From the NCBI GenBank assembly GCA_964429815.1, contig CAYSCM010000003.1, positions 29,297 to 93,296 on the forward strand: a stretch of 64,000 bases of DNA, given 5' to 3'. How positions within the stretch are numbered: position 1 is the first letter of the stretch; each line of letters begins with the position of its first letter. The stretch comes from an uncultured Candidatus Saccharibacteria bacterium (GTDB lineage Bacteria; Patescibacteriota; Minisyncoccia; Phycocordibacterales; CAYSCM01). A program made the position numbers and the translations under genes. Below, one piece after another: positions 3,503 to 55,602 of this stretch. A model generated the notes under the pieces. The model had not been told where the DNA came from. It searched no databases and saw only the letters and a list, made by a program, of their open reading frames with translations.

Positions 3503-3886
3503 ATGCGTATTGCAGGTATCACTATTCCCGATAACAAGAGAATGCCGTTTGCCCTCACGGCGGTTTATGGCATTGGCCGAAGCCGAGCACTGAGCGTCCT
3601 TCGACAAGCGAACATTGATGGTGTGAAAAAAGCCAAAGACCTTTCTGCCGATGAGGAGAACCGTATCCGCAAGATCATAGAGGATTCTTTCAAAATAGAG
3701 GGCGAGCTCAAGCGAGAAATCTCCGGAAACATCAAGCGGCTTAAGGATATCAAGGCCTACCGTGGGGTGCGCCACAGCCGTCGCCTGCCGGTCCGTGGTC
3801 AGCGGACGAAGACCAACTCGCGCACAGTCCGCGGTAACGTCCGCAAAACGATGGCTAGTGGCCGTCGCACCGTTGAGAAAACATAA
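3503..3886 (+). CDS. rpsM: 30S ribosomal protein S13
   Basis: MRIAGITIPDNKR...YGIG at the N-terminus; Lys/Arg-rich C-terminus. Confidence 0.95.
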   Translation: MRIAGITIPDNKRMPFALTAVYGIGRSRALSVLRQANIDGVKKAKDLSADEENRIRKIIEDSFKIEGELKREISGNIKRLKDIKAYRGVRHSRRLPVRGQRTKTNSRTVRGNVRKTMASGRRTVEKT

Positions 3887-3893
3887 CGTTACT

Positions 3894-4328
3894 ATGGGAA
3901 AAAAGCGCGTAGCACGAAAAGCGGGCGGGGAAGTCGATGCAGGCAAAAAGTCGCGAGCTCTTTCGCGTGGGTCCCGAAAAAAGATAGATGCCGGTATTCT
4001 CAATATCGAAGCGACCTACAACAACACGAAGGTCCTCCTCGCCGACAAGGCTGGTAATACTGTGATGTGGTCTACCTCGGGCGCTCTTGGGTTTAAGGGT
4101 GCGAAAAAAGGTACGCCGTTCGCGGCCGCCAAGGTCGGCGAGCTCATCGGGGAGAAAGCGGCCGCACTTGGGGTCAAAGAAGTCGACGTTGTCATCAAGG
4201 GGGTCGGCGCGGGCCGCGAATCCGCTATGCGCGCGTTCGTCGGGAAAGGCATTAACGTGGGGTCCATTCAGGACCGTACCCCTGTTCCGCACAACGGCCC
4301 CAAACCTCCTAAGCCACGCCGCGTCTAA
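3894..4328 (+). CDS. rpsK: 30S ribosomal protein S11
   Basis: Internal ATG of the 3762 ORF. MGKKRVARK...ILNIEATYNNTKVLLADKAGN...FKGAKKGTPFAA is the S11 signature. Confidence 0.95.
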   Translation: MGKKRVARKAGGEVDAGKKSRALSRGSRKKIDAGILNIEATYNNTKVLLADKAGNTVMWSTSGALGFKGAKKGTPFAAAKVGELIGEKAAALGVKEVDVVIKGVGAGRESAMRAFVGKGINVGSIQDRTPVPHNGPKPPKPRRV

Positions 4329-5931: not shown

Positions 5932-6285
5932 ATGCGGCACCACGATCGAAATCGAAAATTGGGACGACGCGACAGCTCACGCCGCGCCCTCCTTCGTTCG
6001 CTCGCGGTATCGCTTATTGAGCACGGCAAAATTACCACGACGGAAGCAAAAGCGAAGGAACTTAGGCCATTCGTGGAGCGCTTGGTGACTCATGGCAAAT
6101 CTGGTACGCTTGCATCGCGGCGTCTCACGATCTCTCGGCTTGGAGGCAACGAGAAAGCGACCAAAAAGCTTTTTGAGAGCGTTGCCAAGAAATACGAGGG
6201 CCGCGCGGGTGGTTACACCCGCATCCTGAAGCTGGGAAGCCGCGGAAACGACGCGGCGCCGATGGCGGTCATCGAGTTCGTATAA
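5932..6285 (+). CDS. rplQ: 50S ribosomal protein L17
   Basis: MRHHDRNRKLGRRDSSRRALLRSLAVSLIEHGKITTTEAKAKELR is a typical L17 sequence. Confidence 0.95.
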   Translation: MRHHDRNRKLGRRDSSRRALLRSLAVSLIEHGKITTTEAKAKELRPFVERLVTHGKSGTLASRRLTISRLGGNEKATKKLFESVAKKYEGRAGGYTRILKLGSRGNDAAPMAVIEFV

Positions 6286-6288
6286 GCC

Positions 6289-6633
6289 ATGGAAATTATC
6301 ATTAACGCACAGGGGAAAAGGCTCGGGCGTATCGCCTCAGAGGCGGCCCATAAACTCATGGGTAAACATGAGGCGTCTTTCAGTAAACATGCGCCAGTTC
6401 CGCACCAGGTCAAGGTCATAAACGCCGGCAGGCTCTCTATTTCTGAGAAAGCGCCGAAGCAAAAAACCTACCAGCGTTACAGCGGGTACCCGGGAGGTCT
6501 CAAGACGCTCACTATGCGCGAATTGGTTGAAAAAAAGGGCTATCCCGAAGTGGTGCGCCTTGCGGTCTACGGCATGCTCCCGCGCAATCGCCAGCGCCCG
6601 CTCGCCATGAAGCGCCTCACGGTCGAGAACTAA
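6289..6633 (+). CDS. rplM: 50S ribosomal protein L13
   Basis: GRLASEAAHKLMGKH...LSGYPGGL is L13-like; it is paired with rpsI as usual. Confidence 0.9.
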   Translation: MEIIINAQGKRLGRIASEAAHKLMGKHEASFSKHAPVPHQVKVINAGRLSISEKAPKQKTYQRYSGYPGGLKTLTMRELVEKKGYPEVVRLAVYGMLPRNRQRPLAMKRLTVEN

Positions 6634-33742: not shown

Positions 33743-34114
33743 ATGCCAGCGCGAACACTAGAAGAACGGGTGGCTTCGCTGGAAAGCCGGGTGGGCGAAC
33801 TTGAGGGACGCGATGAGTTCTTCATCTCTCAACTCCAAGGAATTCACCTGGAAGTTCAAGGTCTGCGTCAAGACTACGAGCTACGGACGAACATTCTTAG
33901 CGCGAGGATGAGGGGTGTTGAGGCTCGACTTAATCAAGTTGAAATCCGGCTCTCACAACTCCCGACACGTGACGAGTTTGAGCAACGACTCTCGCAACTT
34001 CCGACACGTGATGAGTTCGAGCAACGACTCTCACAGCTCCCGACACGTGAGGAAATGACGCAAATCGTCCGGGATGCTCTGATAGCGAGACCCAAAAGGC
34101 CGAAAGCTCCGTAA
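33743..34114 (+). CDS. coiled-coil protein with three tandem 13-aa repeats (RLSQLPTRDEFEQ)
   Basis: Strong ribosome-binding site; 123 aa; heptad-rich. The tandem 39-nt DNA repeats encode the repeated peptide. Confidence 0.55.
   Translation: MPARTLEERVASLESRVGELEGRDEFFISQLQGIHLEVQGLRQDYELRTNILSARMRGVEARLNQVEIRLSQLPTRDEFEQRLSQLPTRDEFEQRLSQLPTREEMTQIVRDALIARPKRPKAP
33948..34058 (+). repeat. about 2.8 tandem copies of a 39-nt unit inside the coiled-coil gene
   Basis: CGACTCTC(G/A)CA(A/G)CT(T/C)CCGACACGTGA(T/C)GAGTT(C/T)GAGCAA repeated in-frame. Confidence 0.7.
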
Positions 34115-35261: not shown

Positions 35262-35717
35262 ATGACTCTCCACGAAAATTTCCGCGAGCAGCTCAAAGAT
35301 GCGATGCGCGCAAAAGATACGGTGCGAACGACTGTTATCAAAAGTCTGATGACTGCCGCTACAAATGAACTTGTCGCAACGAAGCGAAAGCCGGACGAAA
35401 TCCTCACGGATGATCAAACTCTCGCAGTCATTCGCCGCGCTGTAAAGCAGCGAAAGGATTCGATTGAGCAATTCACCAAAGGAAATCGTCCCGACCTAGC
35501 CGCCACCGAGCAAGCTGAACTTAAGGTCCTTGAGGCCTACCTCCCTGCTCAATTGAGCCGCGAGGAAATTGAAAGAGTTGCCCGGGCTAAGGCTGCGGAG
35601 CTTGGCGTCTCCGACAAAACTGGCGCTAATAAACTCATGGGTATGCTTATGAAAGAGCTAAAAAATAAGGCTGACGGTACCGAAGTTAAGGCTGTGGTTG
35701 ATTCTCTTTTTGCTTGA
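35262..35717 (+). CDS. yqeY: GatB/YqeY-domain protein
   Basis: 151 aa. REQLKDAMRAKD...VIRRAVKQRKDSIEQF matches the YqeY family. Confidence 0.8.
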   Translation: MTLHENFREQLKDAMRAKDTVRTTVIKSLMTAATNELVATKRKPDEILTDDQTLAVIRRAVKQRKDSIEQFTKGNRPDLAATEQAELKVLEAYLPAQLSREEIERVARAKAAELGVSDKTGANKLMGMLMKELKNKADGTEVKAVVDSLFA

Positions 35718-35743
35718 CTTTTGGTCATTTTCTGTGGTATAAT
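35714..35743 (+). promoter_or_regulatory. strong sigma70-type promoter
   Basis: TTGACT-18 nt-TGgTATAAT, consensus in both hexamers, followed by an AGGAGG ribosome-binding site for the 35781 gene. Confidence 0.55.
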
Positions 35744-35780
35744 CGAGGCTAGCAAATCGCTCTCTTAGCAGGAGGCCAAA

Positions 35781-35996
35781 ATGGCCAAACCGAAACATGT
35801 CCAAGACGCAATCTTTGCGGGTAGCACCGCGAAGTTATCTGATTACGGCAAGCATGGCGCCCGAGTCGCGACACACAAACGCCGCGCTAAGGCAGCTGCG
35901 AAGCCGACCGCCGAGGAACAAGCCTCGGCACGCCTACGCCGCAAGCACGCGTTCAAGGAGGAGGCCATCGCTTCGTGGGGAAAGTCTCGTGACTGA
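35781..35996 (+). CDS. small highly basic protein (71 aa), unknown function
   Basis: Consensus promoter and AGGAGG ribosome-binding site. Lys/Arg/Ala-rich (HKRRAKAAAKP...RLRRKHAFKEE). The overlapping +1-frame ORF at 35797 is rejected for this stretch. Confidence 0.55.
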   Translation: MAKPKHVQDAIFAGSTAKLSDYGKHGARVATHKRRAKAAAKPTAEEQASARLRRKHAFKEEAIASWGKSRD

Positions 35997-36324
35997 CCCT
36001 ACTGAAGTCCTTCTCGAAGGCTACCTTCTCAACACGGACGAGCTTCAAGACGCCGAGGCTCGTTATCCGGGTTACGTTCGACTCGGGTCACACGGGCGCT
36101 ACGGCGCTGTCGTGACCGTCGCCGGCAATGAGGTGCACTACAACCTTATCGGGGGTGACACGCGCCACTTCGGCGAATGGCATCGTCTCGATACGCGCGA
36201 GATCCCAGAGCTCTTGCAACGGCTTGCTCGTCATCGTGCAGCTGAAGCGGTGCTCGGAGTGAGGCTCGATCATGCGCTGGCAGTCGAGCGTAAACGCAAG
36301 CGCAAAATCATCCTGAAGGTGTAA
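35989..36324 (+). CDS. hypothetical protein (about 111 aa; GTG start inferred)
   Basis: The frame of ORF 35797..36324 stays open for 110 codons after the upstream gene's stop, with no Met codon. A GTG overlaps the upstream stop (GTGACTGA). A terminator follows immediately. Confidence 0.3.
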   Translation: MTDPTEVLLEGYLLNTDELQDAEARYPGYVRLGSHGRYGAVVTVAGNEVHYNLIGGDTRHFGEWHRLDTREIPELLQRLARHRAAEAVLGVRLDHALAVERKRKRKIILKV

Positions 36325-36352
36325 CTGGTCTCGACTGGTTACACCTTTTTTT
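36317..36352. terminator. bidirectional intrinsic terminator (convergent with truB)
   Basis: AGGTGTAAC...GTTACACCT 9-bp stem with inner pairs, then a run of seven T. Confidence 0.65.
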
Positions 36353-36359
36353 ATGTCTT

Positions 36360-37007
36360 TTAGAAATCCCCTATCTTTTTGGCGTGCTCTACTCTAAATT
36401 CTCCGATCCGTGTTCGGCGTAGTGTGTAGAGTGTCGCAGGGTAGCCGAGTCGTCTGCCGAGCTCCTCTGCGAGAGAGCGGATATAGGTGCCGCTTCCCAC
36501 TTCAAACTCCACTCGGATTAGTACCTTATCTCCCTGTCGCTCCACATCCTCCAAAACAGCTTTCAGCACACGCATGGTCTTAACGGGGGTTTCAAACTCT
36601 TCCCCACTTCTTGCGCGTTTGTAGAGTGCCCTCCCCCTCACCTTGACGGCAGAATAGGCCGGCACGGGAAGTTCGAGCTCTCCTATAAGTGAGCTCATTG
36701 CTTTTGCGATATCGCCATTTGATAGTTCCCCGACAGACTTACTTTCTAGAACCGCCCCAGCCATGTCTCCCGTATCGCGTCTTTCTCCAAGGAGTATTGC
36801 CGCTCGATATACCTTGGGAAGTTTTAAGTACACATTAAGTTTTTTCGTCGAGTCCCCTACAGCGATAATAAGAAGCCCCGTCGCAAGTGGATCAAGTGTG
36901 CCCGCATGCCCCATTTTTCGTACCTTGAGACGTGTGCGTAGTTGGCGAATAACGTCAAAAGAGGTGATGCCGGAGGGCTTATCGATGAGAAAAATACTTT
37001 CCATCAT
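36360..37007 (-). CDS. truB: tRNA pseudouridine(55) synthase
   Basis: LIDKPSGITSFDVIRQLRTRLKVRKMGHAGTLDPLATGLLII includes the catalytic Asp motif. Confidence 0.92.
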   Translation of the reverse strand: MMESIFLIDKPSGITSFDVIRQLRTRLKVRKMGHAGTLDPLATGLLIIAVGDSTKKLNVYLKLPKVYRAAILLGERRDTGDMAGAVLESKSVGELSNGDIAKAMSSLIGELELPVPAYSAVKVRGRALYKRARSGEEFETPVKTMRVLKAVLEDVERQGDKVLIRVEFEVGSGTYIRSLAEELGRRLGYPATLYTLRRTRIGEFRVEHAKKIGDF

Positions 37008-38818: not shown

Positions 38819-38825
38819 ACGCTAG

Positions 38826-38897
38826 CGACCCTACCGGGAATCGAACCCGGATTCCGGCCTTGAAAGAGCCGTGTCCTAACCGTTAGACGATAGGGCC
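38826..38897 (-). tRNA. tRNA-Glu (anticodon TTC)
   Basis: Hand-folded cloverleaf: acceptor GGCCCTA/TAGGGTC, anticodon stem CGGCT/GGCCG with loop CTTTCAA, T-arm CCGGG-TTCGATT-CCCGG. Confidence 0.85.
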
Positions 38898-55145: not shown

Positions 55146-55502
55146 TTACGGACGATCGGCGCCGGCGAGCGCATCGGGAGCCGCTTCTTCTTCCCGCGGG
55201 CCCCTGACAATCGACTTTATAACAATTGCCAAGGAGCTCAACAGAAAGAGAACCGCTGCCGTCAAAACGAGCACGAAGCTCATCATTCTGAAAGGCAGCT
55301 TGAGGTCATCAGCGCTCGACGAGGGAATATCCCCCACCATGAACCCGACGCCGAGCACAATGACGAGGACCCCGACGCTCACCCACAGGGCGAGCTTGAG
55401 ATCGACCAGCATGAGCGCTAGGCCCATGAAGGCGACAAGTATGGCGGGTAGATAGATCACCGCCATGTAATGCACATCGTACATGCTTCCCTCCAATTTC
55501 AT
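55146..55502 (-). CDS. hypothetical membrane protein (3-4 TM)
   Basis: A hydrophobic ORF with no known motifs. The start is uncertain. Confidence 0.4.
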   Translation of the reverse strand: MKLEGSMYDVHYMAVIYLPAILVAFMGLALMLVDLKLALWVSVGVLVIVLGVGFMVGDIPSSSADDLKLPFRMMSFVLVLTAAVLFLLSSLAIVIKSIVRGPREEEAAPDALAGADRP

Positions 55503-55602
55503 GCCCCGACGGAATGCGGGGACGACATTTCGAGGGAAATTATATCATAAATAATGCGATCTTGTCAAATAAAAACCGGCCCTTCGTTTGTAGGGCCGGC
55601 CC

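Follow-up and report, generated by a model that had tools for sequence, protein, structure and literature searches.

A possible two-gene cassette of unannotated small proteins in a conserved slot downstream of yqeY in Paceibacterota

The closest described counterparts of the unit analysed here, a pair of small genes lying between yqeY and truB in a 64,000-nucleotide stretch of an uncultured bacterium (contig CAYSCM010000003.1; the whole 64-kb stretch is hereafter the window), are the type II toxin-antitoxin (TA) operons, such as relBE, parDE and GNAT/RHH pairs of the tacAT kind. Like these operons, the unit is bicistronic, with two small, co-directional, overlapping open reading frames (ORFs), ORF1 and ORF2, and a predicted promoter and terminator of its own; the upstream product is small and fast-evolving, and its N-terminal domain recurs next to unrelated downstream partners; the second product is better conserved, with invariant polar residues, and the unit as a whole is patchily distributed among close relatives. 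Unlike them, it occupies a single chromosomal site, with one copy in the window (the one part of this genome examined), and ORF1 and ORF2 share no sequence or fold similarity with known toxin or antitoxin superfamilies. Specifically, no toxin superfamily (RelE/ParE, MazF/CcdB, PIN, HicA, Fic/Doc, GNAT, HipA, Zeta, RES or others) was recognised, and ORF1 has no recognisable DNA-binding fold and none of the RHH, HTH, AbrB or Phd/YefM antitoxin domains. Mobility, which is typical of TA systems without strictly defining them, was likewise not observed, the unit always being found after yqeY.

Three other groups invite comparison. Core-gene-flanked hotspots and idiomorph-like loci (defence or immunity hotspots; the pherotype loci comQX and agrBD) resemble this locus in having conserved flanks and signals around alternative, unrelated content, and in the sharp breakpoints that we observed at a start codon and a terminator; they differ in that the slot described here accommodates no more than one or two very small genes and lacks secretion signals, receptors, integrases and repeats. 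The ribosomal proteins bS21 and bL35 are similar to ORF1 in size (60-70 amino acids), high isoelectric point (pI), strong expression signals and translation-related neighbourhood, whereas ORF1 is hypervariable, replaceable and without a significant profile or pairwise match to them. YbaB/EbfC and KA1/polo-box-like alpha+beta domains, the best of the weak fold matches of ORF2, also have a small antiparallel sheet packed on a C-terminal helix, but neither a profile nor a fold match to HU/IHF, YbaB/EbfC or other nucleoid proteins was obtained.

We tentatively read the unit as the family A allele of a strain-variable, translationally coupled, TA-like two-gene cassette occupying a conserved slot after yqeY in Paceibacterota (Parcubacteria; Candidate Phyla Radiation, CPR). 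A sequence-only reading of the window had already described the pair and had named an addiction-type system among its candidate roles, and the architecture, modular shuffling and patchiness of the locus agree with that suggestion; the homology and fold tests for toxins and antitoxins, the fixed position and the lack of matches in phage, plasmid and viral collections do not. Three points went beyond that description: a competing gene call of 175 amino acids, an ORF1 that is fast-evolving and replaceable, and the status of the unit as one allele of a variable slot.

We surveyed 78 Paceibacterota yqeY loci in which the downstream flank reached 700 nt or more, taken from loci L001 to L093 with duplicate contigs and the window excluded. 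An ATG-initiated ORF of 50-140 codons, preceded by a Shine-Dalgarno (SD) sequence and starting at most 245 nt after yqeY, was present in 50 of the 78 loci, compared with 3/78 in the reverse-complement control, and 49 of the 82 slot ORFs were singletons with no detectable relative among the others. In the clade of family A, the family to which the ORF2 of the window belongs, two further families were found as alternative second genes after the small ORF: family B, of about 95-103 amino acids and ending in FAP(L/R) (L016, L043, L083, L089, L039 and L061), and family C, of about 212-220 amino acids with a basic C-terminal helix (L018, L066 and L046). Neither had a Pfam match or profile similarity to family A. 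Loci with A, B, C or no second gene are interleaved in the YqeY tree within this one clade, and one class of the upstream gene, type-a ORF1, is paired with all three unrelated families; conversely, the type of ORF1 may change while ORF2 remains, as in L008 compared with L006.

A replacement of this kind can be followed at nucleotide level between L014 (positions 3536-4140, family A) and L046 (3479-4140, a 129-amino-acid partner with a weak family C match). Identity is 65-90% in yqeY and 72-85% in the promoter and leader, and the 20 nt before the ATG are identical; over the coding part (approximately 540 nt) it falls to a random level, and 80-92% is regained exactly at the terminator hairpin. 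The downstream gene is conserved as well, and in overview the range outside the coding part is 72-100%. These comparisons indicate that the coding content was replaced and the expression signals were kept. A similar tendency, less sharp, was seen between the window and L012. In L054, a 105-amino-acid slot ORF (3441+97 to +414) ends in ...MLGERDD, in frame with a sequence that by eye resembles the N-terminus of family A (FLMEDDRRTLRLIDAE); this extension may be the remnant of a lost ORF2.

ORF2 is the better defined of the two proteins. An exhaustive profile search of 1.84 billion representative proteins at a cut-off of E <= 1e-3 returned 34 clusters of approximately 97-175 amino acids with near full-length matches, which we call family A; a word-index search found only ORF2 itself and one relative at 63% identity, and a locus search of genome, metagenome and viral collections found no relative. 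Residues L9, G28, R37, F51, H82, E86, A90, R92 and H95 are near-invariant in the family, and the last helix carries the motif (W/R)HRAAEA.LA.R.GH. The ORF2 of the window matches the family profile over its full length, including PG.VRL...GRY.ARL and the last-helix motif, has G28, R37, H82, E86, R92 and H95, and scores 114 bits (E = 1.5e-33) with a local hidden Markov model. None of the 34 members has a Pfam match, and the ORF2 of the window has no match in PHROGs, NCBIfam or PADLOC. An AlphaFold2 model built with the 34-sequence alignment reached a predicted local distance difference test score (pLDDT) of 93.3 and a predicted template modelling score of 0.82, compared with a pLDDT of 42 in a two-sequence run; its topology comprises helices at residues 4-11 and 16-25, four strands within 30-65 and a long helix at 74-110, and no relative of this predicted fold was found in PDB or BFVD. 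The predicted protein is bipolar, with a net charge of -6 in the alpha/beta part before the last helix and of +7 in that helix and its KRKRK tail; across orthologues, the helix and tail carry a net charge of +2 to +10. An assignment to the GNAT acetyltransferases (E = 0.02) was ruled out by motif and secondary structure, since neither the (R/Q)xxGx(G/A) acetyl-CoA motif nor the full fold of about 150 amino acids is present. Our literature search yielded no publication describing the pair or the family. The sequences thus define a real, rare and unannotated family. The earlier statement that neither protein matches a recognised family was borne out by Pfam, NCBIfam, PHROGs and PADLOC, and the 34 clusters removed the concern that the second frame might not be conserved.

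Family A has a narrow and position-specific distribution. In all 13 independent loci with enough flanking sequence (the window, L001, L004, L006, L008, L011, L012, L014, L035, L081, L094, L095 and L096), it lies on the same strand as yqeY, a few hundred bases downstream of it and directly after an SD-preceded small ORF. In 11 loci this upstream ORF, of 60-99 codons (64-99 amino acids in those read as sequence), either stops at the start of ORF2 or overlaps it; that of L095 was called at 189 amino acids, which we read as an over-extension, and that of L081 is known from the slot scan only. Most loci have a gene overlap of 4-13 nt, and L010 has instead an 11-nt gap and a strong SD of ORF2's own. 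The usual neighbourhood is CysRS-DnaB-RecR-L21-RmuC-YqeY, with a variable downstream neighbour (truB, 3-methyladenine glycosylase, tRNA-Glu or others). Carriers are labelled Kaiserbacteria, Nomurabacteria or Patescibacteria, and those that could be identified are Paceibacterota. Family A is present in only 3 of the 80 species-representative genomes that have a related yqeY, and in the YqeY tree every carrier falls inside one clade. In one sub-clade, a tRNA-Glu(CTC) gene occurs downstream of the slot, approximately 0.1-1.8 kb from the pair or from yqeY (L004 6976-7047; L006 6502-6574; L008 2297-2368; L034 4457-4529; L028 5208-5280; L054 3908-3979); the window has a tRNA-Glu(TTC) gene on the minus strand at 38825-38897, 2.5 kb away.

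Both genes have evolved much faster than their neighbours. Between the window and L012, amino acid identity is 86% for RmuC, 82% for YqeY, 39% for ORF2 and 29% for ORF1, and the nonsynonymous divergence is 0.11 for YqeY, 0.64 for ORF2 and 0.87 for ORF1; between the window and L001, the identities are 76%, 67%, 61% and 26% for RmuC, YqeY, ORF2 and ORF1, respectively. The ORF2 of L012, the closest genome by RmuC and YqeY, is located at 6001-6375 and has an insertion in the first hairpin; it may have undergone strongly accelerated evolution or may be an imported divergent allele. A wider phylogenetic incongruence suggested by YqeY was not robust, because the longer RmuC marker agrees with the ORF2 tree for L004, L006 and L008, leaving only L012 as an accelerated or replaced allele.

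ORF1 products are small and basic, with pI values of 9.7-11.6 in all eight orthologues computed, and their sequences can barely be aligned. The differences between the ORF1s of L006 and L011 are distributed over the three codon positions as 0.32/0.26/0.59, with 28 synonymous codon changes, and this coding-type divergence argues that, in relatives at least, the small upstream ORF encodes a genuine protein. Type-a members detected one another in leave-group-out profile tests with E values of 1e-5 to 1e-8. The ORF1 of the window was not recognised by the type-a profile (E = 19); it shares the C-terminal pattern RL..KH.FK..A.ASW.K with the ORF1 of L001 (E = 2e-4) and clusters with type a, and on this basis we read it as a probably shortened and degenerate member. 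No match was found for it by the word-index search, nor by Pfam, which also returned nothing for six orthologues; the best hit of the type-a alignment in a profile search against PDB had E = 1.8, and the ORF1s matched no ribosomal, histone-like or antitoxin family, so that the possibility that the first protein was a known ribosomal or histone-like one, raised when the pair was first described, found no recognisable match. Two candidate groupings were abandoned. A wider type-a membership seen by eye (L020, L048 and others) was unsupported by profile search, and the C-terminal GE[RK].D* of a 'type-b' ORF1 does not stand as a protein motif, since part of it falls on the codons that also provide ORF2 with its SD-like GGnGAG and its start; its recurrence thus reflects, at least in part, a dual-coding constraint.

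The unit and its flanks in the window are laid out as follows.

35262 to 35717, plus strand: yqeY, an ORF encoding a GatB/YqeY-domain protein (Pfam PF09424 on an identical contig); left flank of the slot.
35714 to 35743, plus strand: predicted sigma-70-type promoter, with TTGACT at 35714-35719, an 18-nt spacer ending in TGg, and TATAAT at 35738-35743.
35744 to 35780, plus strand: 5' leader, with an AGGAGG Shine-Dalgarno sequence at 35770-35775, 5 nt ahead of the ATG at 35781.
35781 to 35996, plus strand: ORF1, 71 amino acids, pI 10.6, net charge +10.
35956 to 35984, plus strand: SD-like sequences in the 3' end of ORF1, AAGGAGGAGG at 35956-35965 and GGGGAAAG at 35977-35984.
35989 to 36324, plus strand: ORF2 (family A), with a GTG start, 111 sense codons and no Met codon.
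36315 to 36355, plus strand: predicted intrinsic terminator, with a 15-pair stem (36315-36348) closed by a 4-nt loop and followed by a T7 run.
36360 to 37007, minus strand: truB, tRNA pseudouridine synthase (Pfam TruB_N on an identical contig); convergent right flank in this genome.

All the elements named in the sequence-only reading, namely the promoter, the AGGAGG, the 71-amino-acid ORF1, the Met-less ORF2 and the terminator, were found in place, and the description of a self-contained bicistronic unit between yqeY and the convergent truB stands, with Pfam matches for both flanking genes. The predicted promoter matches 11 of the 12 consensus positions, has the 16-18 nt hexamer spacing expected of sigma-70 promoters and an extended -10 TG at 35735-35736; the stop codon of yqeY sits within its -35 hexamer, and related loci have a near-consensus promoter at the equivalent place. 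The 64-kb window contains two matches to the pattern TTGAC-N14-17-TGNTATAAT, compared with 0.01 expected from shuffles; the only other extended -10 consensus match, TTGACA-17-TGATATAAT, lies on the minus strand at 55539-55568, upstream of a 118-amino-acid ORF at 55146-55502. The terminator, predicted from a GC-containing hairpin followed by a U-run, was called perfect in the earlier description. Its 15-pair stem and T7 run are strong (free energy -19.6 kcal/mol, z = -4.8; 0 of 200 shuffles folded as well), but the stem contains three G-U pairs and is therefore not perfect; the stop codon of ORF2 lies within its 5' arm. Judged from the quality of these signals only, expression is probably high.

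At the gene junction, the GTG of ORF2 (35989) is part of GTGACTGA, and the two genes share 8 nt at the ORF1 stop codon; the last codons of ORF1 thus contain the ORF2 start codon as well as the SD-like GGGGAAAG; the repeat D3 (AGGAGGCCA) is present at both SD-like positions. A local hairpin forms around the GTG (fold of 35960-36010, free energy -21, z = -2.7), and an inverted repeat of 13 nt, 92% complementary (35917-35929 and 36052-36064), brackets the junction; the two structures could enforce translational coupling or could be due to chance. The leader of the window has no significant fold (z = -0.9), and no Rfam family was found in the unit or in the leaders of its relatives. The genome's two other contigs have the same sequence as the window and thus gave no information on single-nucleotide polymorphisms. 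Elsewhere in the window, between rplU and rmuC, a 123-amino-acid ORF (33743-34114) carries RLSQLPTRDEFEQ three times in tandem and lacks a Pfam match on an identical contig.

The frame of ORF2 is open upstream as far as an ATG at 35797, and public gene calls give a 175-amino-acid ORF at 35797-36324 (P0001) in place of the pair. This call overlaps ORF1 in another frame; ORF1 itself was not called, and its sequence is missing from protein databases. Comparison with orthologues decides in favour of the GTG, as the earlier description had supposed. Specifically, the ORF2 frame of L001 is closed just upstream of its ATG start; the junction of L004, ATGACTGAC, aligns with GTGACTGAC of the window; and L008 also has a GTG start and was likewise over-called at 175 amino acids (P0024). 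The overlap and start are conserved among orthologues as ATGACTGA, ATGA and GTGAGTGA, and in all members the family alignment begins a few residues before the conserved D..LR..LL helix. The public 175-amino-acid annotation is thus an over-extension concealing ORF1.

Several relatives have a hairpin in the 5' leader, approximately 6 nt past the -10 element, of the form GAGGG...GT.T..GCGT(A)...CCCTC (L004 5730-5766; L008 1580-1616; L054 3482-3519; L083 3494-3530; L081 3769-3805; L095 4367-4403; L034 3454-3492), whose CCCTCC arm can alternatively pair with the Shine-Dalgarno sequence of ORF1. In a hand-specified model, 92.5% of cells were paired and three of the five pairs were compensatory, a score reached by 0 of 500 shuffles; RNAalifold found no structure on the MAFFT alignment of the leaders, and the hairpin is not in Rfam and has no match in the window. 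This hairpin could stabilise the mRNA or act as a switch of translation, or its GTAC.GCGTAC box could be a DNA operator.

From these features we propose a mechanism for the TA-like cassette. Transcription would run from the near-consensus extended -10 promoter to the strong terminator, and ribosomes would load at the perfect Shine-Dalgarno sequence and translate ORF1; at its end (GTGACTGA) the same ribosomes would re-initiate on the GTG of ORF2, and both proteins would be produced together. We infer this coupling from the gene overlap, the weak proximal SD (GGGGAAAG), the GTG hairpin and the inverted repeat at the junction. ORF2 would be the conserved folded component, with His82, Glu86, Arg92 and His95 on the long helix, Arg37 in addition and the Lys/Arg tail behind it; with its exposed stripe of His82, Glu86, Arg92 and His95, it would act as the effector, which may be an enzyme or a specific nucleic-acid binder. 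ORF1 may bind or modulate ORF2 as a neutraliser or adaptor, following the logic of type II TA systems in a chromosomally fixed form. We consider the unit to be more like a conflict module than a housekeeping one because of its modular, fast-evolving upstream partner, its conserved polar downstream partner, its patchiness and the replacement of alleles.

Several observations weigh against a TA-like cassette. A slot ORF that is phylum-wide is more suggestive of a host function than of a selfish module, and the change of ORF1 type between L008 and L006 speaks against a tight cognate pair. The unit has neither repeats nor an integrase at its flanks, family A has no match in IMG/VR or in phage or plasmid collections, and it was never seen away from the yqeY site in the 13 loci. 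The ORF2 tree, ((L006,L011),L008),L004, matches that of RmuC, and descent therefore appears to be mostly vertical. Finally, although the GC content of the pair is 8 points above that of its immediate neighbours, the pair is no outlier among all 71 ORFs of the window (GC z = 1.4-1.7; z = 0.5-0.7 at third codon positions), and we rejected the idea of a GC island of foreign DNA, since the local excess disappears at the scale of the window. Our confidence in the TA-like cassette is accordingly low, because of the fixed position, the phylum-wide slot, the lack of links to mobile elements and the failed homology and fold tests.

A serious competitor, somewhat less likely in our view, is a non-toxic, constitutive heterodimer associated with nucleic acid (ribosome or RNA, or the nucleoid). 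It would be a housekeeping accessory specific to the lineage, with the basic ORF1 and the basic C-terminal helix of ORF2 making the contacts to RNA or DNA. Such a heterodimer would account for the basic ORF1 in all eight orthologues, the positively charged C-terminal helix and tail of ORF2, the consensus promoter, strong SD and terminator, the mostly vertical inheritance, the phylum-wide slot of small ORFs and the fixed information-processing neighbourhood (CysRS-DnaB-RecR-L21-RmuC-YqeY-...-3-methyladenine glycosylase-TruB). However, a housekeeping binder should neither be swapped for unrelated proteins among close relatives, as in L014 and L046, nor be missing from most sister species; no profile match to HU/IHF, YbaB, ribosomal or other nucleic-acid-binding proteins was obtained, and the invariant His/Glu/Arg/His set suggests a catalytic or specific site rather than binding by bulk charge. 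The nucleoid- or ribosome-associated role suggested for the pair at the outset thus retains the basic charge and the neighbourhood in its favour, and nothing positive beyond those.

Less likely is the explanation that only ORF2 matters and that ORF1 is a translated leader feeding ribosomes to a weak GTG, its peptide being largely unconstrained in this genome. The ORF1 of the window is only 26-29% identical to its closest orthologues, compared with 76-86% for the flanking proteins, and is missed by the type-a profile; the C-terminal conservation of ORF1s (GE[RK].D, WGKSRD) is partly explained by the embedded SD and start of ORF2; and the hairpin at the GTG and the 49 singletons among the 82 slot ORFs point the same way. 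Against this, ORF1 is under purifying selection in the close pair L006/L011, type a is a genuine protein family, and the 11-nt gap and separate strong SD in L010 imply that coupling is not obligatory. The pattern RL..KH.FK..A.ASW.K shared with L001 also sits upstream of the overlap and of GGGGAAAG, yet its FKEE codons spell AAGGAGGAGG.

We regard it as very improbable that the small basic proteins behind yqeY are an extremely diverged bS21 or a functional replacement for it. In Firmicutes, rpsU is adjacent to yqeY. No canonical S21 was found in the window or in approximately 90 fetched loci (phmmer, E > 0.9), the slot proteins are similar to it in size and charge, and a short KPT.E...RKHA resemblance to Escherichia coli S21 can be seen. 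Moreover, bS21 has been reported to be frequently absent from, or often undetected in, Parcubacteria (Tsurumaki et al. 2022, PMC9297842). However, a single BLASTP comparison with E. coli S21 gave E = 0.43, the Pfam and NCBIfam S21 models matched 0 of 17 small ORFs with reporting at E <= 10, and a PDB search returned only non-significant hits, to XVIPCD (E 0.2) and the bL35 chain 7jil_e (E 0.29); a ribosomal protein would, in addition, not be exchanged for unrelated sequence among close relatives. The resemblances of ORF1 to bS21, bL35 and XVIPCD were accordingly set aside as none was significant, and S21-like patterns seen by eye in L082, L089 and L054 were not confirmed by Pfam. The notion that these are chance open frames in GC-rich DNA, with the 175-amino-acid call as the sole gene or no gene at all, is effectively refuted by conservation: at about 60% GC a 71-codon frame would by our own estimate be open by chance in roughly 10% of cases, and ORF1 has no word-search homologue, but ORF2 has 34 homologous clusters and a model of pLDDT 93, the 175-amino-acid upstream extension is closed in L001 and not conserved, a frame of ORF1 size extends between a strong SD and the start of ORF2 in all 13 loci (over-called in L095; from the scan only in L081), and slot ORFs occur in 50/78 loci compared with 3/78 in the reverse complement.

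What is new here is the protein families of the two-gene cassette and the unusual conserved expression slot in which they lie. A broader and more speculative proposal, to which we give less credence than to the TA-like cassette itself, is that Paceibacterota may keep a conserved post-yqeY expression slot, in which a consensus promoter and a structured leader bearing an anti-SD-like element precede the SD and the start codon and a terminator closes the unit, and in which unrelated small-protein cassettes are exchanged precisely from start codon to terminator. Such a slot would represent a novel type of chromosomal diversity locus, and family A would be an allele whose fold and effector/partner mechanism are both new and that may have a role in conflict with phages, hosts or competing strains.

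The CPR bacteria are rich in unannotated small proteins, almost none of which comes with a testable hypothesis. For this pair, the analysis yields a real family of 34 clusters, a confident new predicted fold and an invariant His/Glu/Arg/His set, and it corrects a systematic mis-annotation, in which public databases carry an over-extended 175-amino-acid call that masks the upstream gene. Should the pair prove to be a TA-like or defence module, a phylum with reduced genomes would have supplied new families of toxins and partners; should it instead be a nucleic-acid or ribosome accessory, it would bear on how CPR bacteria compensate for missing ribosomal proteins.

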